A DNA stretch of 64,000 nt. It comes from a virus. Position 1 is the first letter of the stretch, and every line of letters begins with the position of its first letter. The notes under the pieces are model-generated. The model was not told where the DNA came from, searched no databases, and saw only the letters and a list, made by a program, of their open reading frames with translations. Positions 50,363-63,923 of this stretch are shown here, in pieces. The stretch spans positions 1 through 64,000 of IMG/VR virus record IMGVR_UViG_3300043788_000101; one strand, written 5' to 3'. The translations under genes and the position numbers were made by a program.

Positions 50363-51018
50363 CCGATTACGCCGTAGCACCCGCACGGGTCGGCCTCTGG
50401 CTCGACTGCGACACGATCGGCACGCTGACGCCGTCTAGGATCGCGGCTGCCATGGCGCATGTGCACCCGACCTACGGCAAGGTCCAAGGAATCGAAGGCT
50501 ACAGCGAGCTTCCGAACGAACGCGTCGACGGGACCATCTGGACGGCCGACTCGCTCGCGATGGTCGTCGCTGCTGGGGCGCAAGCGCTCTGGATACAGCA
50601 CCCACTCGCGCCGGGTTGGATACCGTCCGAGAACCTCGGGGCTATTCACGAGGAGCACGCGAGCGCCTACGCGGCCTCCTGCGGATTCCCGATGCCGATC
50701 CACGGCGGCGTCGACATCGAGGGCACCGCGGGGCCTTCGTACGGCTACGGGCTCACGTGGGCCACGAATCGAGTGCAGCGCGGCGGCAAGTGTATGGGCT
50801 ACTACGGCTACCAGCTCGGGATGAGCCTCGCTGACTTCGCTGCGATGGCGAACGTCACGGCGTATTGGGAAGCCTTCAATCAGCCGCGCATCGGTGGGCG
50901 CGGGCCGTGCCTTGTCCAGGGTCCTACGCTCACGATCCCAGGCTTCGGCGCGGTCGACACCGACCTGATGGCGGCCGACCTGAAGGGTGAGCTTCCCATG
51001 GTCTGCCAAGCCGCCTAG
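50359..51018 (+). CDS. Glycoside hydrolase-like (DUF1906/GH25-type) candidate endolysin
   Basis: VDIEG, GYYG, YW, VQ, VDTD pattern of GH25-like barrels. Confidence 0.6.
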   Translation: MTDYAVAPARVGLWLDCDTIGTLTPSRIAAAMAHVHPTYGKVQGIEGYSELPNERVDGTIWTADSLAMVVAAGAQALWIQHPLAPGWIPSENLGAIHEEHASAYAASCGFPMPIHGGVDIEGTAGPSYGYGLTWATNRVQRGGKCMGYYGYQLGMSLADFAAMANVTAYWEAFNQPRIGGRGPCLVQGPTLTIPGFGAVDTDLMAADLKGELPMVCQAA

Positions 51019-51047
51019 CAATCGCGACCTGCACAGCAGCGTCAAGC

Positions 51048-51088
51048 GCCCCCACCTGGCTTCGGCTGGGTGGGGGCTTTCTGCTTTT
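51048..51088 (+). terminator. Rho-independent terminator at convergence of the two arms
   Basis: GCCCCCACCTGGC-TTCG-GCTGGGTGGGGGC then TTTCTGCTTTT. Confidence 0.9.
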
Positions 51089-51117
51089 GTGCGCCCTCTC
51101 GCCCGAAGTCGCCTAGG

Positions 51118-51315
51118 CTAGCACGTTGGGCAGGGGCGGCGATGCTCGTCGCAGTAGTCGCAGTTGCCTAAATGCTGGCCGCAATCCGGGCACTTGACCT
51201 CGGCGGACAACGTCTCCGCCCACGTGCGCCAGTGGACGGTGGACGGACACGGCGGGTCCGAATCGGGCCGGCCAGTGTAGGGCCGGTGGCACCAGGCGCA
51301 AGTCTCGTCGCTCAT
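51118..51315 (-). CDS. Small Cys-rich protein
   Basis: GGGAGAG RBS after TGCGCGC; four CxxC pairs. Confidence 0.65.
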   Translation of the reverse strand: MSDETCAWCHRPYTGRPDSDPPCPSTVHWRTWAETLSAEVKCPDCGQHLGNCDYCDEHRRPCPTC

Positions 51316-51352
51316 TCGCTCTCCCTTGCGCGCACTCCCGCGCCGTTCGTCC

Positions 51353-51559
51353 TTACTTTTCACCACGCGAAATCAAGATGACATCGGCGACGAGTAGCGG
51401 TCGCTGCCACTTTCCCTTTGAGGCGAGACCATTCTCGCGCGTGAATCGGTAGCTGCCACAATTCGAGCAGTCTTCGCGCGCCATACTGCCGAACCCGAAC
51501 GCGACCATTGGCTTCGGGTGACGGCATCGCGCGAGGCGCAGCACGGCGGTGTGAATCAT
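51353..51559 (-). CDS. Small Zn-ribbon protein
   Basis: ATGA overlap; CRH...CSNCG. Confidence 0.6.
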   Translation of the reverse strand: MIHTAVLRLARCRHPKPMVAFGFGSMAREDCSNCGSYRFTRENGLASKGKWQRPLLVADVILISRGEK

Positions 51560-51990
51560 CGGCGTCCCGTCACGTCGAGCGACGAAGCCTCATCGAAAAC
51601 GCCCGCAGAAGCGTTTGGCTCCGTCTTCGCTTCTGAAAGCCTACGCGCCTCATTCACAAGGCTGTAGGTCTTGTCGCACTCGGCACAATGCTCAACGCAC
51701 GACGCGCCGGGGCACGCGCACCCGAGCGCGTACTGGTCGAGGCGAGCAATTGTCCTCGCGAGCATCGTACGCAAGGCGTCGCCGTACTGTTTCTGCGCGT
51801 CGGCAATCACCGTCCAGCGGTTCCGAGCCTTCGTCATCTCTTCGAGATCGGCTTCCGCCATAGCGAGCCTTGCGCGACTCTCGATTAGCCGCGTCTCGGT
51901 GCCGGCTAGAAGCTCTGGGCAGAACGCCTGGTGTTCGACGCCGCGCGCTGTCTTACGCCCGCCGCACGCATCGCAAACGAGGTAGCTCAT
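51556..51990 (-). CDS. Cys-rich coiled-coil protein
   Basis: ATGA overlap at 51990. Confidence 0.65.
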   Translation of the reverse strand: MSYLVCDACGGRKTARGVEHQAFCPELLAGTETRLIESRARLAMAEADLEEMTKARNRWTVIADAQKQYGDALRTMLARTIARLDQYALGCACPGASCVEHCAECDKTYSLVNEARRLSEAKTEPNASAGVFDEASSLDVTGRR

Positions 51991-52238
51991 GGCAACGGCT
52001 CCCATCGTCCAGGCAGCCAGTGAAGCGCCTCTCCGATGCCCCAATTCTTCCAATGCTCATCGCACCTGAGCGAGCGAACTATCACGCGACCGCTTCGCGT
52101 TCGACGATGCCTCGTAGGCCTCTGAGGGCAACGTCCGTCGCCACTCTCATGCTGGCATCGGCGGTGCTCAGTTTCGGTATGCGGGGTATCGACGCCGCAC
52201 ACGGGGCATGAAAACGTACCTGTCGGAACTGCACTCAT
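51987..52238 (-). CDS. Small Cys/His-rich protein
   Basis: GGAGG RBS; CPVCGVDTPH. Confidence 0.6.
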   Translation of the reverse strand: MSAVPTGTFSCPVCGVDTPHTETEHRRCQHESGDGRCPQRPTRHRRTRSGRVIVRSLRCDEHWKNWGIGEALHWLPGRWEPLP

Positions 52239-52297
52239 GTCGCCTCCGTTTGCCATTGTCCTAAAGCCCCTCGCGCGTAAAACAACGCCCATATTCC

Positions 52298-53106
52298 CTA
52301 CAGCGGTAGCCGCTCAGCGAGCCCAAACCCCGCACTATTGCGGTGTCCGCCTCCGCCGTACTTCTTGGCAATCTCCGAGACGTCCACGCCTTCGGGACCG
52401 CGCGACCGAAGCGAGTAGGCATAGATGCCGTCCGCTCGCTGGAACCATCCAAGGGCGAACGGGGCCGACTCCGCGAGCTTGCCGACTAGCTCTGAGATGT
52501 TGATGTACGGCGCATTCACGATCGGGATGCGGTAACCCTCGAAGTCGACCGTCCGGGCTTGTTCGACCATCTCCGATACGTAGCGGTCGACGAACGCGAG
52601 CACCGCTTCCCCCTTGTCGATGACAGCGGCAAGCGATAGGTCATTCAGTGCGCTCCACTCCGAGAACGAATCGCGCTTGCAGGCCGAGATCCAAGCGTTC
52701 GCCTCCTTGCTCTTGTCGAATTTCCACCGCCACAAGTCGCGGTCCTCCACGAAATCGATGAGCCACGGTCGTGCAGTCCGGTGCAGCAAATCCCATGTGA
52801 GGCCGGCGCCACTTCGATCCATGTCGAACGTGGCGAAGTCGAGCCCTTCGAGCGCGCCTGCGCCGTCTTGTGGTGGTCGAACACGGATAGTCCGGAAGCC
52901 TTCGCCTTCATGTCCAGCATGACGTCGCGCGGGTAGCTGAAGTCGACGACGAGCACCGACCGTCCGGTCACGTCGGGCGGTGCGTCGCCGTAGCTGGCTG
53001 GTAGGTACTCGGCCTCATCGCCGTACTTGAGCCACGCCGCCCACGCAGCGGTGTACCCGTCGATACAGTTCCCATGGTAGATTACGAGTCGCTTCTTCTC
53101 AGCCAT
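52298..53106 (-). pseudogene. DHH/DHHA1 phosphoesterase split by a 1-nt frameshift
   Basis: YHGNCIDG, VDFSY, DHHKT in one frame; SGAGLTW, EDRDLW, SLRS, GGGGHRNSAG in another; switch near 52855. Confidence 0.85.
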
Positions 53107-53145
53107 GGCCTTTCCTTTCCTGCGTGATCCTACGGGTTGCGCGCA

Positions 53146-53421
53146 TCACTTCGGGCATCGTCCGTACATCAAACCGCACCCCTCACACTCCCAGTGCGCC
53201 ACGTAGGAAGGCGGCGGCGGTCCTCCGATTCGGTCTGAATGGCGGTAGCGCACTACACCGGAAACGCGTCCACCACATACGCGGCACGGCGCAGTCTCGG
53301 GAGCGTATTTACCGACCCTGCGTCTCTTATCCTCTTCGTCCGCACGCCGCTCTGCCATGTGCTTCGGTATCTCGCGAGCTATGCGCGCCACGTCCTCGGG
53401 AGTGAACTTGGGCAGCTTCAA
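53146..53421 (-). CDS. Zn-ribbon hypothetical protein
   Basis: GAGGAG RBS, TTG start; CRVC, CEGC. Confidence 0.7.
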   Translation of the reverse strand: MKLPKFTPEDVARIAREIPKHMAERRADEEDKRRRVGKYAPETAPCRVCGGRVSGVVRYRHSDRIGGPPPPSYVAHWECEGCGLMYGRCPK

Positions 53422-53507
53422 GGTGTCTCCTCTCTCAGTGCGCGCATCACTTCGCCGATGACACCGACAAGTCTTCGAGTGCGCACGTCAAACCGTGTAG
53501 CATGTCT

Positions 53508-53732
53508 TCACTCCAGAATTCTTGTCGTAGGCGTTCCACCCGTCGCACGGCATCCGTCCGCCGTGACAGTCTCTTCAGTCTGCCCATTGGCATGCAGTTC
53601 GTGAGTGTCTAACCATGGACGCAGGCCGTCATCCAAACCGCTCCACGTGAAAGACGATCCGCACGGGCAAACGTACGTGGACGTATCAAGATCAACTTGA
53701 AGCTTTAGCGGTCCGGTCTCTCCCGCTCTCAT
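53508..53732 (-). CDS. Hypothetical protein
   Basis: GGAG RBS; CPCG. Confidence 0.55.
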   Translation of the reverse strand: MRAGETGPLKLQVDLDTSTYVCPCGSSFTWSGLDDGLRPWLDTHELHANGQTEETVTADGCRATGGTPTTRILE

Positions 53733-53758
53733 GTTGCTCCGTTCCTTTCTTCCGTCTC

Positions 53759-53995
53759 CTAGTCGTCCGCGCGCATCACTTCGCCACATCCAGGCGCGCA
53801 AGGTTCGCCTGCTCCCGCGCCACACAAGACGCACGTCGGTTTGCACCGTCCGCCATGGCCAGCGGGCAGCCGGCAGTGCCGTACGTTGCGCTCGTAACAG
53901 GGAATGTCACTCACCATGCGCGGCTTACACCGCTCACATCGACAGATGCAGGCGCGCGTCTGGCAATGAATCCCGTTTAGACAGTGCCCCGTCAT
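53759..53995 (-). CDS. Cys-rich hypothetical protein
   Basis: GGGAG RBS; numerous Cys. Confidence 0.6.
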   Translation of the reverse strand: MTGHCLNGIHCQTRACICRCERCKPRMVSDIPCYERNVRHCRLPAGHGGRCKPTCVLCGAGAGEPCAPGCGEVMRADD

Positions 53996-54029
53996 CTTCG
54001 TCTCCCTAGCGCGCGCAGCGTCGGCGCGA

Positions 54030-54302
54030 TTAGCAGTAGCATTCCGGACATGCGTGATGGCCCGTGTTCGGGCAGCCGATCTCGTTCTCTTTCTCACACG
54101 GGACGGCCTTCATATCCTTGAAGCAGAGAACGCGAGCGCCAAGACACTTCTTGCAGGCGAGCCCGCGAGGTGGGCGCATGCGCTCGTTCATTCGAGCCAC
54201 GATTCGAGCGGCCAGCTCGGGCGTGTCGACCATGCCAACGCACACGTCGTCAAAGTAGAGCGTGCGTCCCAATTTTCGTCCCACTCGCCACCTGGGAATC
54301 AT
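54030..54302 (-). CDS. Hypothetical protein
   Basis: WRVGRKLGRTLY...VGMVDTPELA; Cys-rich tail. Confidence 0.75.
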   Translation of the reverse strand: MIPRWRVGRKLGRTLYFDDVCVGMVDTPELAARIVARMNERMRPPRGLACKKCLGARVLCFKDMKAVPCEKENEIGCPNTGHHACPECYC

Positions 54303-54322
54303 CTAGCTCTCCCTCGCGCGCA

Positions 54323-54511
54323 CTACTTCGGCCTTCGTGACGACGTGCGCTCACATGGCGGCCATGACGTCGTGGCGTCGATTGTGACGTGCACACCTTC
54401 GTGCCCGCGTTCCCGATGGCATCGCATCCGGTGGTTGTTCGGCGGCTCCGCGCGGTACGCCCACGACCGACACCGCGCAGCTTTCTTTGTTCGGATGACC
54501 ATCTGACTCAT
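54323..54511 (-). CDS. Small basic Cys/His protein
   Basis: GGGAGAG RBS. Confidence 0.6.
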   Translation of the reverse strand: MSQMVIRTKKAARCRSWAYRAEPPNNHRMRCHRERGHEGVHVTIDATTSWPPCERTSSRRPK

Positions 54512-54532
54512 CTATCTCTCCCTCGCGCGCAG

Positions 54533-54922
54533 TTAGACCGCCGATGCTCCAGACACTTGCGCACTGACACTCACCGGAGTGTAGGCGTCACACTTCCCGC
54601 ACCTGGCGCACTTGTAAGGCGCGTGGTCGTAGTGCCGGTGCGGGATTGGGTCGTCGCCCTGACACTCGCAACGGTCGGGGTGCTCGTAAAAGCCGCGACC
54701 GCACCAGCTTAGCGCGCCGCCCTCGTTGTTGATTCGGTCTAGCCGTGCGTGGTCGACGTCCTCGGCTCGAATCTTCCCGATGGCGTCGTAAGCCCGAAGG
54801 ACGACACGTACCCTTTCCCATTCCTCGTCTGATGGGCGCACCCCTGGTGTTTCCAATTCTTGGAGTCGCCCACACTCGTCGTTGAGAGCAGATAGGATGT
54901 CAGCGATGGCTTTCGACTTCAC
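54533..54922 (-). CDS. Hypothetical protein with Cys/His-rich tail
   Basis: GTG start; CARCGKC. Confidence 0.7.
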   Translation of the reverse strand: MKSKAIADILSALNDECGRLQELETPGVRPSDEEWERVRVVLRAYDAIGKIRAEDVDHARLDRINNEGGALSWCGRGFYEHPDRCECQGDDPIPHRHYDHAPYKCARCGKCDAYTPVSVSAQVSGASAV

Positions 54923-54961
54923 GTTGTCACCCTTCGTCCGTGTCCCGGTTCATCGCGCGCA

Positions 54962-55129
54962 TCACTTTTGGGATGCTTCCGGCTTCGGAATACCCATCCG
55001 CACTTTGCGCAGAATGACGCATCCAAGGCACTTGCATCCGCGTGCGATGTATTGGCCCGTCTTCTCGTTCCCCAGCGTCCGCCATGCCTCTGCGGCTAAG
55101 CGGTCTGGTAATTCGATCGTTACCTTCAC
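54962..55129 (-). CDS. Small hypothetical protein
   Basis: GAGGAG RBS, GTG start; KVTIELPD. Confidence 0.6.
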   Translation of the reverse strand: MKVTIELPDRLAAEAWRTLGNEKTGQYIARGCKCLGCVILRKVRMGIPKPEASQK

Positions 55130-55170
55130 GGCGTCTCCTCTCTCAGTGCGCAGCGTCGGCGCGATGTTCC

Positions 55171-55419
55171 TCACGTATGCCCACCGTCTAAAACCTCGGA
55201 GGCGACGATCAGCGCCGGATCGTTTGAACCCTTGTGCTGCACGCCACAAATTGTCGATCCTGGAACATGCTCCATCGCACACTCGATTGCGCGCATTGCA
55301 GTTGGAGCCACAACGGCCAGCATCCGATTTTCGGACCACCGACGTCCCGCTGCCTCATCTTTCGGCAACGTGACCGTCACATGCCACACGTGCTGCCCCT
55401 TGAATACTTGAATGGCCAT
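55171..55419 (-). CDS. Hypothetical protein
   Basis: GAGGAGG RBS. Confidence 0.7.
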   Translation of the reverse strand: MAIQVFKGQHVWHVTVTLPKDEAAGRRWSENRMLAVVAPTAMRAIECAMEHVPGSTICGVQHKGSNDPALIVASEVLDGGHT

Positions 55420-55448
55420 TTCGTGCCTCCTCTAGAAGTCCGCGCGCA

Positions 55449-55739
55449 TCACTTCGGGGATGCTGGCGACACGTGCCCACCATTTTCGATGATCCGAACC
55501 GCGTCCTCTAACGCATGACCAGCCATCCGTCGGTCGCCATTCTTATATCGCTCCCACGAGGCGAGCGCCTCTGCCTTGAGCCAAGCAACGATGAGAGCCC
55601 GCTCGCTCTTCACGCCCTCATCGTACCCCGCCGCACGCATGATGCTCGGGACGTCTATCGGCGGTTGCTGCCCGACGTCCACGTAGATGACGGCGTTTGG
55701 CGCCAGTGTGCCTCGTAGGTCTGTCGGTTCATTAGCCAT
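55449..55739 (-). CDS. Hypothetical protein
   Basis: AAGGAGG RBS; ERALIVAWL. Confidence 0.7.
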   Translation of the reverse strand: MANEPTDLRGTLAPNAVIYVDVGQQPPIDVPSIMRAAGYDEGVKSERALIVAWLKAEALASWERYKNGDRRMAGHALEDAVRIIENGGHVSPASPK

Positions 55740-55784
55740 CGTGCATCCTCCTTCGCCTCGCGCGCAGCATCGGCGCGATTGTCG

Positions 55785-55991
55785 TTACACTTCCTCACGG
55801 TTCGCGAACCCATCAGTGTTCGGGCAAGTCTGCGAGTTTGGCCTGATGTGATTGTCGAGGATGCCTACGTACTTGCATTGGGAGCACCGCTCCAGACGAG
55901 GCTTTTTCTTTGGCCACGACAGGCCAACGACGCCGAGCACGATGGCGACCACGAGCAGAAACGTGAGGTACTGAATCGAGAAGCCTTGCAT
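55785..55991 (-). CDS. Small membrane protein
   Basis: AGGAG RBS; TM helix then KKK and CSQC. Confidence 0.7.
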   Translation of the reverse strand: MQGFSIQYLTFLLVVAIVLGVVGLSWPKKKPRLERCSQCKYVGILDNHIRPNSQTCPNTDGFANREEV

Positions 55992-56090
55992 GGTCGCCGT
56001 CTCCTAGAAGTCCGCGCGCAGCCGCGCGGCAATTGTCACTACAGATTCTCACCGCCGTTGACCAGGATGATCCCCTTGGCTTCATAGGAC

Positions 56091-56270
56091 CTAGCGCGCC
56101 TCTCGCGTTCTCGCGTTCCTCACAAGCTGCTCCACGGCCCCGCTCCGCGTCTGACCGCGCTGGCTCGCGATGGCGTCGAGTCGGGCAAGCGCCTCGGGAC
56201 TCAGCGTCAGCGTCACCATGGGGCGCGTGCGCTTGGCGTTGGGGGTCGTGGGGGTGCCGGAGCGGGTCAC
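56091..56270 (-). CDS. Ribbon-helix-helix (CopG-like) DNA-binding protein, 59 aa, not in ORF track
   Basis: MVTLTLSPEALARLDAIASQRGQTRSGAVEQLV; GTGA overlap. Confidence 0.8.
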   Translation of the reverse strand: MTRSGTPTTPNAKRTRPMVTLTLSPEALARLDAIASQRGQTRSGAVEQLVRNARTREAR

Positions 56271-56479
56271 GACTTCGATCGTTCGATTTCGATGATGCGA
56301 GCTATCTCGTTCAAAGCATCCCGGCGTGACCCGCGAACGGACGCCATCAACGTTCGGGAAGCATGTTCCCAGCCGACCGTAAAGCCTCGCCCGTCACTGT
56401 CGCGGCGAACGCGAACGTAGGCGCACTTCCCGTTGACGACAAGCTTGCGCGCGTCCCAGCCTGTCCATGTTTCTGACAT
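56267..56479 (-). CDS. Small hypothetical protein, probably leaderless
   Basis: ATG 7 nt after the TACTAT box. Confidence 0.65.
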   Translation of the reverse strand: MSETWTGWDARKLVVNGKCAYVRVRRDSDGRGFTVGWEHASRTLMASVRGSRRDALNEIARIIEIERSKS

Positions 56480-56486
56480 GAGATAG

Positions 56487-56515
56487 ATAGTACATGCGCC
56501 GTACGTACAGCGCAA
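56487..56515 (-). promoter_or_regulatory. Sigma70-like promoter TTGCGC-N17-TACTAT with GTAC repeats
   Basis: 17-nt spacer, extended TG, GTACGTAC palindrome at 56501-56508. Confidence 0.7.
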
Positions 56516-56596
56516 GGGATAATCGTACGCGCTATGTCGATTTCTGCGGACGCGGCTAAGTGCGCGAAAAGGCTGGGCGCGCGCATGGCACTTACT

Positions 56597-56884
56597 CTAC
56601 CGAAGTGCGTTTCTGCACTCGTCCAATGTGCGCTGAACGAGATAGTTGAACTCGGTTGGTCCGTCGATCAGGCCCCGTGCCATCAACAGTGTGGCTGCCG
56701 CGCTGTTCAGTGCGTCTCGAAGACGTTGCGTCTCCGCATCCTTCGTCTGCTCGATAATGACCTTGCGGACACGGTCATACAGCGTCTCGAAACCGAAGAC
56801 GATCATTGTCCCGTCGCCACCATCGCTCTGCCGAGCTGGGTCGATGGTGCGTCTCACGAGTCGGTCAAGCTCTTCGTCCGTCAT
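56597..56884 (-). CDS. Hypothetical protein
   Basis: AGGAGG RBS. Confidence 0.7.
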   Translation of the reverse strand: MTDEELDRLVRRTIDPARQSDGGDGTMIVFGFETLYDRVRKVIIEQTKDAETQRLRDALNSAAATLLMARGLIDGPTEFNYLVQRTLDECRNALR

Positions 56885-56930
56885 CGGGTGATCCTCCTGG
56901 TGCGCGCGCATCTGAGTTAGCTCACCCTCC

Positions 56931-58574
56931 CTAGTTGCTCTGGATGGCGACGGCCATGTTGGTGAAGTTCGACGTGCTGCCCGAGTTGTTGCCGAAGCTC
57001 GGCGTCGCGCTCCCGGTGAACGTGCCGGTTTCGAGCGTGGCCGAGTCGCAGTCGCAGGATCCCTCTAGGCCGTCCCAGTTCCACGTGCTGCCGAGCGCCG
57101 TGTAACCGGCGCCGGCCGACGAGGGATTGAATCCGTACGTGACCGCCACGACCAGCGACGGTACGTCGAACGTGAGGGTAGGCAGCACGTCCGGCTGCGT
57201 CCCGTTGCCCCCGCAGCAGTCCTCGAAGACGACGTTGGCCGACGAGCCGACCACGGGTAGCGGGCCGGTGCCCGCGATCTCGAGCACCGCGATCGTCTGC
57301 CACTGGTTCACCCCGTCGAAGGTCGATGTCACCGTGAGCCCGCCGGGCGCCGCCGGGACGCCCGTGGCGGCGAAGCCGAGCATCGCGCCGAAGTCGGGCG
57401 CGTCGGTAACCGAGTCGAACTGCGCGTACGAGTTCCCCGCGCCGTCGGTAATCGTGATGGGCGGCGGGGTCATATCGCCGTTGTTGTCCTCGGCCGAGAA
57501 GACGACGATCGTGCTGCCGGCGAGCACCGGGCCGAGGGTCGCGTAGATCGCCTCGTTGTTGCTGTTGCCCTCCGGCGGGCAGTCCCCGTCGCACTGGAAG
57601 GCCGCCCACTGCCGGACGTACGCCGCGACGCCACCGGCATCGGGAGCGGCGTCTGGGGCAGCGTCCGCCGTGGCGTCGACACCGCTCTCGGTCTCGCCCG
57701 CTTCGTCGCTAGAGGCCTCCGCCTCTGCCAGAGCATCTAGCGTGCTGGAGTCGCTGGCGTCACTCGAAGGGGCCGCGTCATTGGCATCGCTGAGCGCTCC
57801 ATCGGTCGCGTCCGAGCCCGCCCCGGCGTCCGAGGCGTCCGATACGTTCGCGTCGGATGCGTCGGCAACGGCCGCGTCATTCGCGTCGCCGCTCCCGTCC
57901 GAGGCGTCGCTGCCCGCATCGTGCGCCGCATCGGTGCTGGCGTCGCTCGACGCGTCGGCCGCGCTGTCCGCCCCCGCGTCCGAGCTGCCGGCCGCCGCGT
58001 AGACACGCATCTGCCCGGTCGTCGTGTAGTAGTTCAAGCCGCCAGGCGCGCCGTACACGCGGATCGCAGTGCCCGTCACGGCCGGGAAGGTGAACGTGTA
58101 GGTCTCGAAGTTGACGCCGTTGTCGCCGCCGAACGCCGGGCTCGTCGTCACACCCGAGACGGTCGTCCACACCCCGCCCTGCTCGACCTGCACGGCAACG
58201 CTCGTGAACCATCCGCCGTTCCAGTACTGGATGCCCTGCTGGTAGACGACGCCGCCGAACGTCTGCGCGGTCGCGTAGGTGTAGCTGATCCAGTTCGCCG
58301 TCTCGGTCTTGCCGGTGTACGCGTTGAACTGCTGGGCGGAGTCGGTGGACCCCTGCGGCTCGAAGATGCCGTCGTAGATGACCGATAGCGGCCCGGCCGT
58401 CCCGAGCGCGGCGTGCGTCGGGGTATCGCCGAACGCGGCCGTCCCGCTTGCGGTGATGTCGGTGCCGAGCACCGCCTGGCTCTGGCTCTCGACGCGCTCT
58501 GGTGGGGCGGACGCACTGCAGCCGAGCAAAGCAGAAACGCAAACGGCGAGAACGCTCGTCTTATGGATCATCAT
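56931..58574 (-). CDS. Large lipoprotein: discoidin/CBM-like domain, DAG/DAS linker, beta-sandwich domain
   Basis: Lipobox LLGC, ESQSQAV; WISYTY...GGVVYQQG...GGWF...AIRVYG; acidic SDA repeats. Confidence 0.85.
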   Translation of the reverse strand: MMIHKTSVLAVCVSALLGCSASAPPERVESQSQAVLGTDITASGTAAFGDTPTHAALGTAGPLSVIYDGIFEPQGSTDSAQQFNAYTGKTETANWISYTYATAQTFGGVVYQQGIQYWNGGWFTSVAVQVEQGGVWTTVSGVTTSPAFGGDNGVNFETYTFTFPAVTGTAIRVYGAPGGLNYYTTTGQMRVYAAAGSSDAGADSAADASSDASTDAAHDAGSDASDGSGDANDAAVADASDANVSDASDAGAGSDATDGALSDANDAAPSSDASDSSTLDALAEAEASSDEAGETESGVDATADAAPDAAPDAGGVAAYVRQWAAFQCDGDCPPEGNSNNEAIYATLGPVLAGSTIVVFSAEDNNGDMTPPPITITDGAGNSYAQFDSVTDAPDFGAMLGFAATGVPAAPGGLTVTSTFDGVNQWQTIAVLEIAGTGPLPVVGSSANVVFEDCCGGNGTQPDVLPTLTFDVPSLVVAVTYGFNPSSAGAGYTALGSTWNWDGLEGSCDCDSATLETGTFTGSATPSFGNNSGSTSNFTNMAVAIQSN

Positions 58575-58598
58575 CAGAAACCTCCCTGCAAGGTGAAC

Positions 58599-59081
58599 TT
58601 AGAACGTCGGCACGTCTTCGTCAGCGTCACTGTACTCGCCGAAGCTCGGCGCCTCGAACGCAGGAGCCTCGAAGCTGGGAGCCTGCGGCGGCGGCCCGTC
58701 TGGCCACTCGGTCTCGCCAGCAAGCGCGCGCGCCTCTGGGGGCGGCGGCACGACGCCGGAGCGGATGCGGCGGGACCACCCCCTAGCTCTCGCAGCTGAG
58801 CGACGGTTGCCGGCGACATACTTGAGCTTGTCGGGCTTTGGGTTGTTAGCCGCGTAGGTCATGGCCTCAGCCAGGGCCTCTAGGAACTCGGGCGAGCACT
58901 GGCTCATTCGTTTGCCGGTGTAGTCGGGCCCACGGAAACTCTTCGGCGAAAAACGAATCTGCTCGTCACCGTACTGCGAGTCAAGATCACTGTCGCTAGC
59001 AAACAGTCCGCTCGCGGACTCAAGGTAGGCGACCCGATCTCGCAGGTCCTTGAAAGCCTTTCGCAGCGCGTCCTCGTTCAC
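58599..59081 (-). CDS. Hypothetical protein with acidic C-tail ending VPTF
   Basis: APSFE/APAFE repeats; DEDVPTF resembles SSB-type tails. Confidence 0.7.
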   Translation of the reverse strand: MNEDALRKAFKDLRDRVAYLESASGLFASDSDLDSQYGDEQIRFSPKSFRGPDYTGKRMSQCSPEFLEALAEAMTYAANNPKPDKLKYVAGNRRSAARARGWSRRIRSGVVPPPPEARALAGETEWPDGPPPQAPSFEAPAFEAPSFGEYSDADEDVPTF

Positions 59082-59584
59082 TCGGTCCTCTGCGCAAAAC
59101 GAGAGGGCGTGGTGAGAGCACGTTCAATAGACCATCCTACAGCTAGCCGTTCGCAGAGCGAGCACGGCTGGATGCCAATGCGTCGAGCCCAATCACTTAT
59201 AGTGAGACACTCTCCCCGGAATGAGATTCGACGATTGGTCGTACGATTGTTCGCCTGTTCTTTCTGCGTCGCCCATCGACAATTGCGCGACGTATAGTTG
59301 CCGTTAGTGTTGTTGCGCTCAAGCGTGTGTTTTGGAGATGGCTTGCGACCCATGTCGGTTAGGAAGTTCTGAAAGCCGGTCCGCCCAGACCATCGAGCGC
59401 AGACCTGGATGCCGCGAGCGCCGTATCGCTTGAAGCGCGATGAGCTTTCGATCTCGCAACGCGCGTGCATGTTTTGCCAAGCAGTGTACTCAGGCGTGGC
59501 CTTGCGACCAAGTGACTGACTAGGAGATTCGCCGTGCGTCGTAAGCGCGGCTCGTGCGGCTGCTATCTGATTCGGGTTGCCCAT
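59078..59584 (-). CDS. HNH endonuclease
   Basis: THG...TPEYTAWQNMHARC...YGARGIQVC...LERNNTNGNY...NCRWAT..EQANN. Confidence 0.9.
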   Translation of the reverse strand: MGNPNQIAAARAALTTHGESPSQSLGRKATPEYTAWQNMHARCEIESSSRFKRYGARGIQVCARWSGRTGFQNFLTDMGRKPSPKHTLERNNTNGNYTSRNCRWATQKEQANNRTTNRRISFRGECLTISDWARRIGIQPCSLCERLAVGWSIERALTTPSRFAQRTE

Positions 59585-60714
59585 CACGCGACCTCCTTCG
59601 GCTTGAGCGCCCGGGGCCGACGTGGAGCCTTCGCAGCCCCGATCGGCTTGGCCGCAATGATACGCGAGACCGGGGACTCCCGGTAGCATTCCGCGATCTC
59701 TTCCTCAGTGGCCCCGCGCTTGCGGGCGAGCGCGAGCAGAGACTCCGCGTGCAGTCGTTCGCTGGAACTGAGCGACTCGCGTAGCTCCCGCCCGTCCGGC
59801 AGCGGCAGACGCTCTTGACGGGCCCGCTCCTTGATGAGGTCGAGGACGCGTTCGAGAAGCGGCTTCATGCGGTCGTGGCCGAGCACCCAGGCCTCGCCGA
59901 GCTGCTCGGGCGTGGCGGTCGCCAGCGTACCATCGACGGCCACGAGGTCGGGCAGCATCGAGCGGACGAGGGCCTGTTTCGCCGGGCAAGCGCCCGACGT
60001 GAGGGCCGGGCAGTACCGGCACCATTCGCCCTCGTTGACGTCTGGCGTGCCTTTGGCCAGGTAGACGCGCTTTGCCTCCTTCGACGCCGCGAGCGCCGCC
60101 TCAAGCTCATCGAGGAAGCCGTCGAAGTCGAAAGCCGTGTGCACCGCCGAGTCGTTCCAGACCTTGCCGCTCGTCTTGACGCTCGAGATGCGAAACTCGA
60201 CCTCGGGCGCGTCGTGGGCCAAGTGCACCGCGCTCGCGAGCATGAGGCCCTGGCCGTTGTAGGCGGCGGGCTCGACGTCTAAGAATCCTGTCTTTATATC
60301 CGTAATCCTCGGCCTGCCGTCGACGTCGTTCCCGAGAATGTCGATGCTGCCAGGCACGTCCCACTCGCCGAGCGGGCCATCCTTCTCGTATTCGCGGCCG
60401 ATGTCGACCCCGATGAAGCGCGCGGTGCGCTCGCGCACGTTGACGATGTATGAAACTTCGCACGAGATGTCGCTGAGGTCGCCGCCGATCTTGTGCCAGT
60501 CGATCGCGGCGCATGTCTCGCGCGTGGCCGGATCCTTCACGGCTTCGAGTGCGCGTGCGACTGGCGTGCCGGTGAGCACAGCCTTGCCGTATCGGTGGAT
60601 GACGGTGCCGCGGACCGCGTGCGGGCTGTCGCTGTCGGCGTGGCTGAAGGCTAGCCAACTCGGGCACATGAGGGTGCGCGTCGTCGCGCTGGCGGAGCCG
60701 TTCGGGTATCTCAC
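59584..60714 (-). CDS. PD-(D/E)XK exonuclease, Cas4/DUF2800-like
   Basis: CP, RGTVIH, CEV, GSIDI, ITDIKTG, GEWCRYCPA...C. Confidence 0.85.
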   Translation of the reverse strand: MRYPNGSASATTRTLMCPSWLAFSHADSDSPHAVRGTVIHRYGKAVLTGTPVARALEAVKDPATRETCAAIDWHKIGGDLSDISCEVSYIVNVRERTARFIGVDIGREYEKDGPLGEWDVPGSIDILGNDVDGRPRITDIKTGFLDVEPAAYNGQGLMLASAVHLAHDAPEVEFRISSVKTSGKVWNDSAVHTAFDFDGFLDELEAALAASKEAKRVYLAKGTPDVNEGEWCRYCPALTSGACPAKQALVRSMLPDLVAVDGTLATATPEQLGEAWVLGHDRMKPLLERVLDLIKERARQERLPLPDGRELRESLSSSERLHAESLLALARKRGATEEEIAECYRESPVSRIIAAKPIGAAKAPRRPRALKPKEVA

Positions 60715-60902
60715 GGGCCCTCCTTCAAAGCGGTCGCAATCATATTGCAGATGTCGCGGTCGTGAATAGCAGGAAGCGCCTCGACGAGGAGGCGCTCTAG
60801 CACGATGCAGCGGAGCACGAGGCGCCGCGTGCGTGGGTCATCCGCGAACCCGTCGTCGACCATCGAGTCGTCTTCGAGCGGGGCGGAGATGACGGCGGTC
60901 AT
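60711..60902 (-). CDS. Hypothetical protein
   Basis: Coupled at both ends. Confidence 0.6.
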   Translation of the reverse strand: MTAVISAPLEDDSMVDDGFADDPRTRRLVLRCIVLERLLVEALPAIHDRDICNMIATALKEGP

Positions 60903-61330
60903 GACCAGCGCCCAAGTGGCTTATCAAGCGGTATGCCGCGTTTCAGTCGAGACCACACCGTACCCTTGTCGAGGCCAAAGCGATCTGCCCACGCTTGCAT
61001 ACAAAGAGTCTCGCCACGGAACGTAATCATGCGGTTGTTCCGACGATTTCGGTTCTGCTCTGACGACGTCGCCCAGCGCACGTTTCCCGGCTCGTAGTTC
61101 CCGTTTGGGTTTGGATGACGATCCAGAGAATGCCATGGGCTGGGTCGAGGGCCAACGGACGCGTAGAAAGCCTCGAATGAACCCATCCAGCTGGAGCAGA
61201 CACGAATCCCACGGCCACCATACAGATGCCAGTACTCGTGCGTAGAACGAGTACACCTGGCCTTCATACTATGCCAGGCCGAGTACTCGGGTGTCCCGTA
61301 CATGCCGTGAGTAGTCTGCGAGTGGGTCAT
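60899..61330 (-). CDS. HNH endonuclease, paralog of 59078
   Basis: THGM..TPEYSAWHSMKARC...YGGRGIRVC...SLDR...NGNYEPGNVRWAT. Confidence 0.92.
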   Translation of the reverse strand: MTHSQTTHGMYGTPEYSAWHSMKARCTRSTHEYWHLYGGRGIRVCSSWMGSFEAFYASVGPRPSPWHSLDRHPNPNGNYEPGNVRWATSSEQNRNRRNNRMITFRGETLCMQAWADRFGLDKGTVWSRLKRGIPLDKPLGRWS

Positions 61331-62295
61331 CGCGCAAGCGTCCCCTGCTGCGCGCCACCGAATGGGATCGGAGGTTCCTCAGGGCCGTCATACGAGTCAC
61401 CGCGCTGATTCGGCGGGAGGTACGGCTTCGTGTTCGCGGGCGGCGCCGTGGTCGAGGCGGACCCCTTCGGCTCGTCTTTCTTCTTCGCGCCGAGGGTCAG
61501 ATTGTAGAACGTCCGAAGCTCTGCCCCCATGGCCTCCGGCGCGTCCGCCGAGAACTTCCCGATGAGCGCGTGGACGGCCTTCTTGTCCTCGGTCTTGCCC
61601 GACGCCGCTGCGTCGGTGACGGCCTGCTTGAGCACGTCGGCCTCGGCCTGCCAGTCGCGCGCCGCGACCTGCGGAGGCGGAGCGCCTGCCGTGACGACTT
61701 CGCCCTGCATCTCGTCCTCAAGCTCGTCGATGGTAGGCAAACCCATGGTCGCGTCGGGAAACCAGATGTCGGCCGCTTCCGATCGGGCGCGAGCCTGCAT
61801 CATGCGCCGAGGGAACTTCTCATAGTTGGAGTCGGGCTTCACGACCCCCATACGCTTCGCGTCTTCGATCGTGAACTTGACGAGCTGTTCGGGCGAGCCC
61901 TTCCGTTTGACCTTCCACGTCGCGTGCGTCGTGTCGCTCGAGACGTGCTCGAAGATTTCGCACTGCGGGTGACGCAGGACGAGCGCCTGCTTGAGCGCCG
62001 CCGAGAGGCCGGTGCGCCCGTAGAGGTCGTAGACGTGCTGCATCGCGATGACGGCAGGAATGCCGAGGTTGCGCCCGGTCATGAGGCGCATGAGAGCCTG
62101 CTGCTCAGTGAGCTTCGCTGCGCCCTTCGGCGCCCACATGCCCGAGTCGGAGATGATCTTCGCGAGGCTCATCGCGTGCTGAAAGTCGTTCGGTTCGAGC
62201 GCGAGCGCGAACGAGTTGTCAGGCGTGGTCTTCGCGAGCGCGACGCTCGGACGGCTCGGGTCGTCGTGGCTGTTCGGCGGAGTCGTGGTCATCAT
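61327..62295 (-). CDS. RecT-like single-strand annealing protein
   Basis: GRNLGIP..AMQ, FTIEDAKRMG, NYEKFPRRMMQARA, FPDATMG; paired with exonuclease. Confidence 0.78.
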   Translation of the reverse strand: MMTTTPPNSHDDPSRPSVALAKTTPDNSFALALEPNDFQHAMSLAKIISDSGMWAPKGAAKLTEQQALMRLMTGRNLGIPAVIAMQHVYDLYGRTGLSAALKQALVLRHPQCEIFEHVSSDTTHATWKVKRKGSPEQLVKFTIEDAKRMGVVKPDSNYEKFPRRMMQARARSEAADIWFPDATMGLPTIDELEDEMQGEVVTAGAPPPQVAARDWQAEADVLKQAVTDAAASGKTEDKKAVHALIGKFSADAPEAMGAELRTFYNLTLGAKKKDEPKGSASTTAPPANTKPYLPPNQRGDSYDGPEEPPIPFGGAQQGTLAR

Positions 62296-62321
62296 GATCT
62301 AGCCCTCCTACAGGCCGAGAG

Positions 62322-62350
62322 AATGTAACGCCTCATTCGAGCGAATGCAA
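62322..62350 (-). promoter_or_regulatory. Leftward promoter TTGCAT-N17-TACATT with overlapping inverted repeat
   Basis: CATTCG-AG-CGAATG at 62334-62347 overlaps the -35. Confidence 0.7.
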
Positions 62351-62352
62351 GA

Positions 62353-62559
62353 TTATTGCGATGCGGTCGGGTCCGCGAGTCGACGCCGTTTGGCGTAGCG
62401 CTGGACCGCGGTGCGGGCGAGCGTCTTGAGCGGTTGTCCCATCCCCCATCGATAGATGCTGGACTGAGAAACGCCGAGCGCCTCGGCGAGCTTGCCGACG
62501 CCGCCGGCAGACTCTGCGAGCTGGAGCCACGCGCCCTCGAGCGACGTCTTGCGGCTCAT
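62353..62559 (-). CDS. Cro-like HTH regulator
   Basis: GGVGKLAEALGVSQSSIYRW. Confidence 0.88.
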   Translation of the reverse strand: MSRKTSLEGAWLQLAESAGGVGKLAEALGVSQSSIYRWGMGQPLKTLARTAVQRYAKRRRLADPTASQ

Positions 62560-63383
62560 GCGGACACCAACGCAAGGCGCGGTTTTGTATAGCGGTCGAG
62601 GTAAGCGCCGACGTCTGGGCGCCCTTGTCTCTCAAACAGACCCACGAGTCGATTACACGCGCTATGAACAAGCGCCCGCGGGACCCCAGTGGCGTGGTCA
62701 TGGTCGCGGTGCACGGAGTCACCGCGGTTTCCGTGCGGCCGCATGGGCTTGCCGCAGCAGGCGCAAAGCCCACACTGAGATTCCCACGCAGCCTCGAATG
62801 CCTCACGAGTCCAGCCGGTACGTTTCTCGATCTGGGCGTAACGGTATCCGTTCGCCTCGCGACGGGTCTTGTCGTGGCTTCGAAGATGAGTCTCGCATAG
62901 AAGTGGACTACCGAGCTTGCGATTCTGCAAAAACGCATTGCAAACCTTGCAATACGGTGGGCGCGGCCTTTTCGTGTATGGCCGCTTCGGCTTCCGCATC
63001 TTTGCCTTCGCCTCTTCGGAATGAGGACGACCAATCCACGGGTGGTGCTGCGAGCGATACTCAGCACGCGAGGCAAGAAAGAGATGGTCGATGCGAACGC
63101 ATGCCCTATTGCGGCAGCGCCATAGAAGGACGAGCCCGTGCGGAATTGGCCCAACAGATACGCGCCAAGCTACACGATGATTGTGTGTCTCGCGCTTTTC
63201 GCCAGGAATGCTAATCGAAATCGTGCCGTACCATTCCAGGCATTCCCCTACCGACACACAGTCGACCGAGAGGCGGTGCCGCGCGACAGCAATCCGTTCG
63301 TCTGGCGTCATCGCTTGCGGTGCGCGCCCAAGAAGGTGAGAGCAGTCGCCGGGACAAGTTTCGGGCACTTGCGCGTGTCGCAT
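62556..63383 (-). CDS. Fusion of degenerate HNH, NUMOD3 and Endonuclease VII domains
   Basis: CLEW...HRVAW...GPIP...CRNRACVRIDHL; GRPHSEEAKAKM; QCGLCACC...HRDHDHATG..RALVHSACN. Confidence 0.8.
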   Translation of the reverse strand: MRHAQVPETCPGDCSHLLGRAPQAMTPDERIAVARHRLSVDCVSVGECLEWYGTISISIPGEKRETHNHRVAWRVSVGPIPHGLVLLWRCRNRACVRIDHLFLASRAEYRSQHHPWIGRPHSEEAKAKMRKPKRPYTKRPRPPYCKVCNAFLQNRKLGSPLLCETHLRSHDKTRREANGYRYAQIEKRTGWTREAFEAAWESQCGLCACCGKPMRPHGNRGDSVHRDHDHATGVPRALVHSACNRLVGLFERQGRPDVGAYLDRYTKPRLALVSA

Positions 63384-63391
63384 GGCGAATC

Positions 63392-63420
63392 AAGCTAACG
63401 CACGATTCAAATATTGACAA
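63392..63420. promoter_or_regulatory. Divergent promoter region
   Basis: Minus strand TTGTCA-N17-TAGCTT 8 nt before ATG 63383; plus strand TTGACA at 63414-63419; TCAA-ATA-TTGA inverted repeat. Confidence 0.6.
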
Positions 63421-63470
63421 CGCGAAAGCGTCGTGGCAGCGTGGCCGGCATCCTCGGAGGCGACCATCCC

Positions 63471-63923
63471 ATGAGCAAGACTCCCGACCAGAACGACCGC
63501 GGCGTGCGCGAGTTCGCAGCCCAAGAGCCGAAGGCCTTCGGCGTCATCTTCTCACAGCTTGAGGACGGGCAGCTGCAGCTCGACGCGACCGCGCGCCTGG
63601 CCGAGCTTTGCGCCGAGCTGTCGCGCCAGGCGGACGCGACGGGCGGCAAGGTCAAGGGCTCCTTCACGCTCAAGATCAAGATCGCCGCGGAGCGCGGAGG
63701 CGTCGTCGACATCGACTCGGACATTACCATCGTCAAGCCCAAGGCGCCGCGTCACCGCAGCGTCATGTGGCTGAATGCAAAGGGTGCTCTCTCGAACGAG
63801 AACCCGAAGCAGCTCTCGCTCGGGGTGCGCGACGTCTCGAAGCCTGCCGAGGAGAAGCCGCGCGAGGCGCCTGCGGTCAAGACCGCGGTGGCGCACGACG
63901 CGGCGACCGGCGAGCTTCGGTAG
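63471..63923 (+). CDS. Hypothetical phage protein, first gene of a rightward unit
   Basis: GGAGG RBS; KGSFTLKIKI...GALSNENPKQLSL. Confidence 0.8.
   Translation: MSKTPDQNDRGVREFAAQEPKAFGVIFSQLEDGQLQLDATARLAELCAELSRQADATGGKVKGSFTLKIKIAAERGGVVDIDSDITIVKPKAPRHRSVMWLNAKGALSNENPKQLSLGVRDVSKPAEEKPREAPAVKTAVAHDAATGELR

Follow-up and report, generated by a model that had tools for sequence, protein, structure and literature searches.

Gene array and linkers

The stretch of DNA analysed here (the window, 64,000 nt) is included in the complete 90.9-kb genome of a phage designated G000. It carries an array of small genes, all of them on the minus strand, promoter-less and placed behind one conserved promoter before g3. 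The heptamer TGCGCGC is the unchanging centre of a three-part intercistronic linker, roughly 33-70 bases long, that recurs along this array.

Gene g1 encodes a 547-aa protein with an F5/8 type C domain, and the g1/g2 core (56904-56910, minus strand) has a loose context, consisting of a stop codon plus 20 nt. The head module (56480-56585, minus strand) begins with a core at 56579-56585, followed by a conserved region of ~95 nt that includes a sigma70-like promoter (-35 at 56515-56510, 17-nt spacer, -10 at 56492-56487) situated 7 nt before the start of the leaderless g3 (56479-56267), the first gene behind the promoter. This module was ~85% identical to the metagenome locus L151, with the homology starting exactly at the core. 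The next gene, g4 (56270-56091), encodes a ribbon-helix-helix protein of the CopG type (Pfam RHH_1, 3.7e-6).

The following linkers are all on the minus strand. Those before g5 (55992-56044, core 56014-56020) and between g5 and g6 (55740-55790, core 55760-55766) have a left module with the stop codon plus 18 nt, and in the g6/g7 linker (55420-55472, core 55442-55448) the left module is translated, ending in ..SPK, and the stop codon abuts the core. In the g7/g8 linker (55130-55176) the core is shortened by 2 nt (55146-55152) and shares its right flank with the core at 53440-53446. Linkers g8/g9 (54923-54985, core 54955-54961), g9/g10 (54512-54555, core 54525-54531) and g10/g11 (54303-54346, core 54316-54322) come next, followed by g11/g12 (53996-54041, core 54011-54017), with a left module 6 nt shorter, and g12/g13 (53733-53799, core 53769-53775), in which g12 is translated through the core and its stop codon is the TAG of the right module. 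Linkers g14/g15 (53422-53470, core 53440-53446) and g15/g16 (53107-53169, core 53139-53145) precede a decayed linker between g16 and g17 (52239-52303), with TACGCGC at 52273-52279 and a leader of the type named R5. The cassette g17-g18-g19 (51353-52238), whose three genes have overlapping internal starts and stops, is followed by the g19/g20 linker (51316-51358); its core, at 51328-51334, had already been noticed in the original prediction. The array and the convergent plus-strand operon are closed by a GC-rich, 13-bp hairpin at 51048-51077, a two-way terminator. Upstream of the array, in the same transcription direction, PHROGs identified an exonuclease (59584-60714, minus strand) and a RecT-like annealing protein (61327-62295, minus strand), which were the only recombination machinery found.

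Distribution of the heptamer

Between positions 53139 and 56910, the minus strand contained 14 exact copies of TGCGCGC versus 1.28 expected (Poisson P = 1e-10), an expectation taken from the background of the whole 90.9-kb genome (0.34 copies per kb per strand). The latter agrees with the chance rate of around one per 4 kb assumed in the original prediction, and the enrichment over background was found locally, within the array. Twelve of the 14 copies are at gene junctions according to the gene map, after a stop codon and ahead of the next ribosome site (the exact cores given above, from 56910 to 53145), and two are within genes, at 55289-55295 in g7 and at 53794-53800 in g12, both without linker flanks. 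The earlier count of 12 exact cores plus one variant has therefore to be raised to 14 exact copies, the variant at 55152 being the core that is 2 bases shorter. The mid-gene copy at 55289 had been recognised correctly, but not the second one, at 53800; the copy at 53769 lies, as stated, in the last codons of g12.

The entire window was not enriched in TGCGCGC, with 56 copies on both strands versus 60.5 in shuffles, and the heptamer ranked only second among the locally clustered 7-mers of the genome. The array signal is thus local, strand-specific and positional. From g4 to g20, all gaps of at least 10 nt (13/13) carry the element. The core-less junctions overlap or nearly abut (GTGA at g3/g4, a 4-nt gap at g13/g14 and ATGA at both g17/g18 and g18/g19), in accordance with the earlier observation that they are mostly ATGA/GTGA-coupled. 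Also as noted before, the proteins encoded between cores are unrelated, in this case ORFans, and many of them are Cys-rich.

Structure of the linker

The core that had been described at the gene junctions is present there, but not as a bare 7-mer, since it is embedded in a conserved element of ~33 nt. The linker is composed of a 24-nt left module, the core and a right module. The left module carries the stop codon of the upstream gene at one of two positions, 18 nt ahead of the core or directly next to it, and in the latter, abutting form the module is translated, so that the protein tail ends in ..SPK. The right module carries the ribosome-binding site, sometimes plus a mini reading frame. 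The distance from the core end to the start codon was 12-45 nt, and in the shortest linkers (12-13 nt) the ribosome site abuts the core.

The heptamer was invariant in 39/39 aligned copies. Conserved positions in the left flank were G-22 (33/39), T-21 (31/39), A-13 (32/39) and W-12 (35/39) and, nearer to the core, C-8 (28/39), G-7 (30/39) and G-2 (28/39), together with R+7 (36/39) on the other side. The base that follows the core depends on the lineage, being A in 7/9 copies of the relative G003 and G in most others. A scoring matrix from the 39 copies, trained on these same copies, matched only in arrays. The decayed linker (52279) and the linker 2 nt short (55152) are both followed by intact genes, which indicates that not every gene needs the core.

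Upstream pairing of the core was not above background, as it was predicted for 87% of the junction copies versus 79% of 148 non-junction copies, the mean energy being -11.5 kcal/mol at junctions and -11.9 kcal/mol elsewhere (P 0.5-0.7); no specific hairpin was detected. The 39-copy alignment showed no conserved inverse core, the linkers had no U tracts and no -35/-10 pair, and Rfam gave no match. A sigma70 consensus scan of positions 50500-63500 detected a single promoter-like site, and none at any linker.

Linkers in related phages and gene turnover

The comparison comprised four genomes (G000-G003) and four metagenome fragments (L146, L151, L152 and L171). Copies of the linker were found in G001 (9), G002 (5) and G003 (9), and more in the four fragments. 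Besides G000, then, at least three phages and several metagenome fragments have the same linker, which separates almost entirely different genes in them and is conserved to the base among phages otherwise unrelated in genome; G000 and G002 have just four proteins in common, and their terminases are 26% identical. The linker-bearing phages are a group of uncultured high-GC soil phages.

The gene content of the array was almost wholly replaced between relatives that keep the linkers, and homologues in other arrays were limited to g17-g19 in G001, g4 in G003 and g19 in G002. The g4 homologue heads the array of G003, which is located on the other strand, and even there the orientation of the element follows that of the genes. 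The additional cassettes of G001 are each bounded by cores, and RtcB, encoded outside the array in G000 (69640-70827), lies between two cores in G001, in line with cassette capture. One right module stands before six unrelated genes, including those for a C5 DNA methylase and a PAPS-reductase-domain protein. The right module of the g15/g16 linker was also found in L152, before a gene without protein-level match to g16.

Evidence of cassette exchange

Positions 52277-51317 of the window were 95.8% identical at the nucleotide level to G001, while the length-weighted identity of the backbone was 77.9%, with a maximum of 90.9% (31 kb). The left break of this shared block (g17-g19) is at the core 52273-52279 and the right break is 12 nt after the next core. 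These values indicate that g17-g18-g19 was exchanged recently as a block with both ends in linkers. The block, ATGA-overlapped inside and common to G001 as one piece, is also an example of the one- or few-gene units that the core had been proposed to delimit.

In a four-gamete test six quartets were complete, as each of the two commonest left modules was combined with the same set of four right modules, and the re-paired left and right modules have only the letters of the heptamer in common. In every comparison, the two edges of the core were the exact points at which the modules switched. On the other hand, in the near-identical pair G002/L146, the end of homology coincides with the outer limit of the right module and not with the core; breakpoints against relatives, expected at the core, are found there in some cases and at outer linker edges in others. 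Taken as sequence comparisons, these data support cassette exchange at linkers.

Searches for candidate machinery

No match to Phage_integrase, Resolvase, Y1_Tnp or RVT_1 was obtained in six-frame searches of complete G000 or of its three relatives. PF00589 had no match in complete G000 or in G001-G003, and the control genomes all matched. Twenty further non-structural ORFs, compared with Pfam, gave only HNH, N6/N4 methylase and DUFs. No T7-type RNA polymerase was found, which is weak evidence of absence because the control genomes were also unmatched in the same search. Sigma70 region 2 was present only in G002, and no RHH protein was found in the G002 fragment.

Interpretation of the linker

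On balance, we regard it as probable that TGCGCGC marks a modular linker separating promoter-less accessory cassettes in the variable part of the early operon, and that cassettes are exchanged via the linkers. The best reading of the array is that of the variable ('hyperplastic') part of this operon, and that of the linker is a recombination and expression element similar to the promoter-early stem-loop (PeSL). Cassettes would move between co-infecting phages through recombination templated by linkers and carried out by the exonuclease/RecT pair of the phage itself or by host functions, the GC-rich heptamer being the shortest patch in common. The linker would persist because incoming genes also receive a translation start and a stop context from it. 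An overlap of seven bases is far below the known requirement of RecT/Red-type annealing, so plain homologous recombination leaves the re-pairing exactly at the core unexplained. That the heptamer never varies while its flanks do suggests a specific reader. Gene-boundary breakpoints are also expected from selection after random illegitimate recombination.

Other explanations assign the element to gene expression, among them the RNA processing or protein-binding site that the original prediction gave as an alternative. The linker may be an RNA-level signal on the polycistronic early transcript, for ribosome hand-over (termination-reinitiation, partly through a mini reading frame starting at the xUG of the core) or for processing or stability, with exchange as a by-product; we consider this rather unlikely, even though the element is at every non-overlapping junction, absent where stop and start overlap, and always oriented as the genes, also in G003. 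In addition, the stop codon occupies one of two fixed positions, the abutting form gives an overlapping stop and AUG, the core-derived frame is closed before or at the next start in 26/36 linkers, 19/36 starts are of the NTGA type and the R5 module has a conserved mini-ORF overlapping the ribosome site. However, half of the cores would begin with CUG (C at -1 in 19/39), the pairing values and Rfam results given above show no specific structure, and sense-strand in-gene copies are not avoided (2 in G000; ~3.7 expected across three arrays). Clearly less probable is a DNA operator with orientation-dependent, stoperator-like control of transcription, bound by a sequence-specific protein such as the RHH protein of g4 or a host factor. 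The site is asymmetric and intergenic and keeps the same orientation with respect to transcription, an RHH gene is at the head of the array in both G000 and G003, the base after the core is lineage-specific, and the conserved skeleton positions recur every ~9-10 nt, as might be expected on one helix face. Against this proposal, lysogenic silencing is unlikely because the complete genome has no integrase, the sites are restricted to ~5 kb instead of genome-wide, no RHH turned up in the G002 fragment and the left module is conserved even when translated; palindromes in two RHH promoters, unlike the core, would be the expected RHH operators. We find it very hard to believe that each cassette is preceded by a promoter for a sigma factor or RNA polymerase specific to the phage. 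An asymmetric element of ~30 nt upstream of each gene, followed by a purine and with GGAAC-like letters 13 nt before the core in many copies, would be in agreement with such promoters, but in the shortest linkers only 12-13 nt, with an abutting ribosome site, separate the core from the start codon, melting would have to occur in a stretch of nothing but GC, the consensus scan gave no sigma70-like site at any linker, sigma70 region 2 is confined to G002 and, as weaker evidence, no T7-type polymerase was found.

Another explanation retains exchange as the primary role. In a dedicated site-specific cassette system with integron-like logic, DNA would be cleaved and rejoined within the 7-bp core by an as yet unrecognised enzyme of phage or host, and the unit excised or inserted would be the right module, the gene or genes and the left module. 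The invariance of the 7-mer (39/39) beside discrete and variable flanks, the switch of modules at the edges of the core, the occurrence of all four left/right combinations, the homology to L151 and G001 beginning at the core, the co-oriented cassettes with one promoter ahead and the sharing of linkers by phages with unrelated backbones are all consistent with such a system, which we nevertheless judge improbable, considering the searches for recombinases in G000 and its three relatives, the 20 additional ORFs with only HNH, methylase and DUF matches, the lack of attC-like folding above background and the breakpoints at outer linker edges. The same low credence is given to its fullest form, in which the heptamer is a strand-exchange site for integrase-free cassette exchange, unrelated soil phages share a common pool flanked by half-linkers, and a phage or host enzyme joins any left with any right half precisely at TGCGCGC. 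The crossover core for cassette gain and shuffling put forward in the original prediction is thus upheld by comparison only (gene turnover and all four left/right combinations), but not as a dedicated system, since neither an integrase or resolvase nor a Y1 transposase or reverse transcriptase was found in the complete genome.

If the reading of the linker as an exchange and expression module holds, linkers would be a sequence handle to find and delimit accessory genes in metagenomic phages of high-GC soil hosts, and a cassette pool would be common to several phage lineages. The accessory genes (ORFans, methylases and RNA-repair enzymes) probably have host-takeover or anti-defence functions. 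The origin of phage mosaic joints at gene boundaries is an old question that becomes testable here in a defined sequence.

Comparison with known systems

The linker behaves much as known phage gene-shuffling regions do, although its sequence is new and no enzyme is known to act on it. Stoperators of Cluster A mycobacteriophages are 13-bp sites distributed genome-wide in temperate phages and bound by the immunity repressor (PMC9283540, PMC6550527). Like them, the elements described here are short, asymmetric, located in small intergenic gaps and oriented with transcription, but they are confined to one array, in a phage without integrase or recognisable immunity repressor.

The SAS of Cluster K mycobacteriophages is a 13-mer containing a Shine-Dalgarno sequence (AGGAG), 3-7 bp before the start, and the ESAS consists of paired 17-bp inverted repeats (Pope et al. 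2011, PMC3203893); SAS have no known function and no gene-exchange role was proposed for them (PMC3203893). The linker is similarly a short asymmetric repeat in one orientation, restricted to the non-structural region and placed before unrelated gene families, just upstream of start codons, conserved across lineages as the SAS is across subclusters, and at times overlapping the upstream stop codon. In contrast, its invariant part is another heptamer, 5' of the ribosome site and 12-45 nt before the start, which does not correspond to the 13-bp consensus, and paired inverted repeats were not seen.

With integrons it has in common the promoter-less, co-oriented cassettes behind a common promoter, a feature that alone does not define the family, as well as a conserved 7-base core at cassette boundaries and variable but related sequences 3' of the genes. 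It differs in having neither IntI or other tyrosine recombinase (G000-G003) nor attI, and no attC-type imperfect hairpin with an inverse core; the core sequence is also different and the element belongs to the operon of a lytic-looking phage. If the reading of integrase-free exchange were true, phages would have their own counterpart of the integron, based on new chemistry.

PeSL cassettes occur in hyperplastic regions of T4-type phages (Arbiol et al. 2010, PMC2839356; Comeau et al. 2014, PMC4122927). A PeSL consists of an AT-rich sigma70 promoter and an adjacent terminator stem-loop, so that each cassette is its own transcription unit, and PeSL mini-circles were demonstrated by inverse PCR (PMC2839356; PMC4122927). 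The linkers lack a sigma70-type early promoter, as well as U tracts and a terminator stem-loop above background, and they bring together instead, within one operon, a stop context, the invariant GC heptamer and a ribosome site. As in PeSL regions, a short conserved intergenic module is repeated among small ORFan genes of a variable region, the insertions, deletions and replacements between relatives end in modules (here G000/G001, the G001 cassettes and G002/L146), no dedicated recombinase is known and the general recombination machinery of the phage is invoked, and the module serves expression too. What sets the linkers apart from PeSL, and constitutes their unusual point, is the sharp re-pairing of their halves exactly at an invariant 7-nt core without a known recombinase.

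Genome organization

The window represented the first 64 kb of a complete virus record of 90,916 bp (one contig, 63.7% G+C). The IMG/VR class of the record was that of genomes with direct terminal repeats, and the first 30 bases were found again at 90799. Up to about 50 kb, the plus strand encoded terminase, portal and tail proteins. From about 62 kb downward, the minus strand carried genes for an exonuclease and a RecT-like protein together with a long series of small genes (g1 to g20 in transcription order in the array region), with a GC-rich two-way terminator hairpin at its end (51048-51077). No close cultured phage was detected by blastn and tblastn among 50,697 phage records, the best cultured-phage terminases in the tblastn search being at most 31% identical.

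Directly upstream of the array, g1 (547 aa; 56931-58574, minus strand) carried an F5/8 type C (discoidin) domain, with a signal-like segment at its N terminus and a long low-complexity stretch rich in Asp, Ala and Ser; no relatives of it were found in phage or viral-contig searches. The sole DNA similarity of the 7.6-kb region to phage records was a 108-nt stretch of g16, a DHH/DHHA1 phosphoesterase gene (52298-53106, minus strand); its nearest match at the DNA level was in Caulobacter phiCbK-like phages, whose DHH gene is 74% identical to it over 108 nt. In this genome g16 occupied two overlapping frames, 53106-52645 and 52822-52298, with the shift near 52851-52860. Because a sensible protein sequence resumes in the other frame past a GC run, the split is an apparent 1-nt frameshift, to be explained by either a pseudogene, an error in the assembly or programmed slippage.

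Distribution of the core

The original prediction of a heptamer repeated at the junctions of a small-gene array was confirmed: TGCGCGC occurred in 14 exact copies on the minus strand between 53139 and 56910, 12 of them, by the gene map, in the interval from a stop codon to the following ribosome site. In-gene copies were two, at 55295 and 53800. The copy previously placed at 53769, in the last codons of its ORF, does fall at such a position, since the core at 53775 lies within the last codons of g12 and translation of this gene passes through it; the variant copy, also predicted, was located at 55152 and is a core that has lost two bases. Also present were a decayed copy at 52279 and a further exact copy at 51334.

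Given a whole-genome background of 0.34 heptamers per kb per strand, 1.28 copies were expected against the 14 seen (Poisson P about 1e-10). The window-wide count showed no overall enrichment (56 versus 60.5 in shuffles) and one low-complexity 7-mer clustered slightly more than TGCGCGC, so that the signal of the heptamer resides in position and strand and not in total count. Each of the 13 gaps of at least 10 nt in the g4-g20 stretch held the core or a decayed form, and the junctions lacking it were overlaps (GTGA, ATGA) or one 4-nt gap. Chance or composition as the source of the repeats was ruled out, the enrichment being local, strand-specific and positional, and the element being kept in other phages.

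The proteins encoded between cores belonged to no Pfam or PHROG family, apart from g4 (ribbon-helix-helix, RHH) and the frameshifted g16 (DHH/DHHA1). Between g4 and the first array linker, a 14-codon frame (56031-56075, minus strand) terminates at the linker's own stop codon and looks like the remnant of a deleted cassette.

Relatives carrying the same linker

The complete linker consists of a left module with the upstream stop codon, the core, and a right module with the ribosome site. Relatives carrying it were found by DNA-pattern scans, of which the productive pattern was an AT-richer right module; most GC-rich motif scans returned chance matches, a scan of IMG/VR with the commonest left module gave no further relatives, and protein-based searches yielded only the relative G001. 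This is a 62-kb fragment, ending inside its array, with nine linker copies and a backbone 66-91% identical in DNA to this genome. G003 (38 kb) also has nine copies, on the opposite strand, which is still the coding strand, and its structural proteins are about 30-57% identical. G002 (30.7 kb, five copies) is the same phage as locus L150 and has a near-identical strain, L146; only four detectable proteins are shared with this genome and the terminases are 26% identical, with linkers matching over about 25 nt with a single mismatch. The linker was also present in metagenome fragments L151, L152 and L171. Two exact patterns, run against 185,579 bacterial and archaeal species genomes, revealed no host or prophage copies. 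All of the evidence comes from comparison, of four genomes and four fragments.

One of just four proteins common to this genome and the otherwise unrelated, linker-bearing G002 is an N6/N4 DNA methylase (85386-86150 of the complete genome, L184:1386-2150, minus strand), 25% identical to its G002 counterpart. About 4 kb upstream of its array, G002 (L125) also encodes a sigma70 region-2 protein (24044-24241, minus strand, in a 227-aa frame). In G003, a T5orf172/MUG113 (GIY-YIG-like) protein is encoded between the RHH gene and the linker array (L180:6107-6586), possibly a nuclease adjoining the array; this gene is not present at the corresponding place in this genome.

Structure of the linker

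A total of 39 junction copies from this genome and the relatives were aligned, anchored on the core. The heptamer was invariant, within a larger skeleton of G-22, T-21, A-16, A-13, W-12, C-8, G-7, G-2, R+7 and A+8. In the short left flank, the type originally quoted, the stop codon abuts the core; in the long one, the stop codon is followed by exactly 18 nt and then the core, a spacing that holds in 12 of 13 such copies. Both flanks are one and the same module of 24 nt, which occurs in two states. The stop codon of the long state begins with T at -21, while in the short state the triplet at -21 is a sense codon and translation continues to TGA at -3, with the consequence that unrelated proteins share the same tail (e.g. 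..ASPK). Right modules are of several discrete types, each with a ribosome site; the distance from the end of the core to the start codon is 12-45 nt. With a scoring matrix built from the 39 copies, the full element was found in arrays only and on the coding strand, the other about 65 heptamers of the genome lacking linker flanks; as the matrix was trained on the same copies and is circular, this result describes specificity and is not independent support.

One right-module type, R5 (about 35 nt; 52239-52272, with homologous leaders in L119, L124, L180, L151, L152 and L171), includes a conserved mini reading frame (MANGG, then E or D). This frame runs over the main ribosome site; with respect to the start of the next gene, it terminates there, overlaps it or is in frame with it. 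Before g3, the core at 56585 (minus strand) forms the left edge of a promoter module composed of -35, 17 nt, -10, 7 nt and the start of g3; its match to metagenome locus L151 starts exactly at this core and is about 85% conserved. This sigma70-like promoter (56480-56530, minus strand), 7 nt before the g3 start, would give a leaderless mRNA. Its spacer includes an 8-bp palindrome, GTACGTAC, with an imperfect inverted repeat on its flanks, a likely operator of the adjacent RHH protein g4.

Evidence for cassette exchange

Homologues in other arrays were found only for g17-g19 (in G001), g4 (in G003) and g19 (in G002), and the turnover of array content is almost complete. The block 52277-51317 (g17-g19) was 95.8% identical to G001, compared with a mean of 77.9% and a maximum of 90.9% over 31 kb of backbone alignments, which marks a recent exchange. 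Breakpoints of gene gain and loss had been proposed to coincide with the core, and in the comparison with G001 they fell in linkers: the high identity of the block starts inside the upstream linker's core, the left modules there being different, and stops 12 nt past the core of the downstream linker, and at the place occupied here by g20 alone, G001 holds about 2.8 kb of extra genes, each bounded by cores. Among these is an RtcB gene (Pfam 2.4e-120; L119:2515-3726), with 72% nucleotide identity to the RtcB gene of this genome, which is located outside the array, on the other strand, near the tRNA cluster (69640-70827); the G001 fragment stops short of the region where a second copy could sit.

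The modules were also re-paired. R5 precedes six unrelated genes in six contigs, including a C5 DNA methylase (4e-37) and a PAPS-reductase-domain protein, and stands there behind at least five different left modules. The two left modules seen most often (8 and 7 copies) were each combined with the same four right modules; the six complete quartets of this four-gamete test indicate that the linker halves were re-paired repeatedly. The only letters common to the parental linkers were those of the heptamer. The predicted role of the core as crossover point was in part upheld by this re-pairing around the heptamer, but some breaks lie at the outer linker edges: in the near-identical pair G002/L146, homology is lost at the end of the right module. 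Such breaks are what recombination templated by the whole linker would be expected to leave.

Possible functions of the linker

The best-supported explanation, somewhat probable on these comparisons, is that the element acts as a standard linker between the cistrons of a hyperplastic accessory-gene array, where it would supply expression signals to whatever gene is plugged in, in the manner of the promoter-early stem-loop (PeSL) of T4-type phages, and would serve as a patch for cassette exchange between related and unrelated co-infecting phages, run by the exonuclease/RecT pair or by host functions. The main weakness of this explanation is that ordinary recombination by annealing needs more than seven shared bases, which keeps alive a true site-specific system. 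This would need an unrecognised enzyme, and is improbable: neither tyrosine or serine recombinases (Phage_integrase, Resolvase) nor a Y1 transposase (Y1_Tnp) or reverse transcriptase (RVT_1) were detected in the complete genome or the three relatives, and Pfam searches of 20 further non-structural ORFs gave only DUF2303, DUF7873, HNH, N6/N4 methylase and DUF5131. The rival readings overlap in part with the PeSL-like linker.

RNA-level coupling or a processing signal is unlikely, if less so than the site-specific system. In 26 of 36 linkers the frame read from the core meets a stop codon no later than the next start, NTGA-type starts occur in 19 of 36, and in short-form linkers the stop overlaps AUG; a relay mini-ORF from the core is possible on these frames, although half of the cores would need a CUG start. 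A three-frame stop adaptor was rejected (all frames closed in only 8 of 36 linkers). On visual inspection, several types of flank could base-pair with the core. A specific RNA or ssDNA hairpin with the core as 3' arm was likewise rejected, as folding was no better for junction copies than for 148 non-junction copies in these GC-rich genomes; folds of +/-45 nt revealed no shared pairing partner, and Rfam gave no match at E up to 1 in 50500-58000. A DNA operator is marginally less probable than a site-specific system: an RHH gene heads the array in both this genome and G003, and the palindromes in the RHH gene's own promoters are unlike the core. A promoter is very improbable and was discarded as a reading of the linker. 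No T7-type polymerase was found in the complete genome or the three relatives, a search in which the control genomes likewise gave no match; no NusG/RfaH-like factor, relevant to an ops-like reading, was detected in the same four genomes; and the sigma factor was seen in G002 only, no counterpart being found in this genome.

Comparison with known systems

The PeSL-like linker shares its logic with the PeSL of T4-type phages (PMC2839356, PMC4122927), but, lacking both promoter and stem-loop, it is not itself a PeSL. Neither is it an integron, since IntI and an attC fold are absent here. The start-associated sequence (SAS) of Cluster K mycobacteriophages shows a like positional behaviour (PMC3203893), but the linker differs from it in sequence and position and is therefore not an SAS. 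Finally, the lack of lysogeny genes in the phage and the restriction of the sites to one array distinguish it from a stoperator system.
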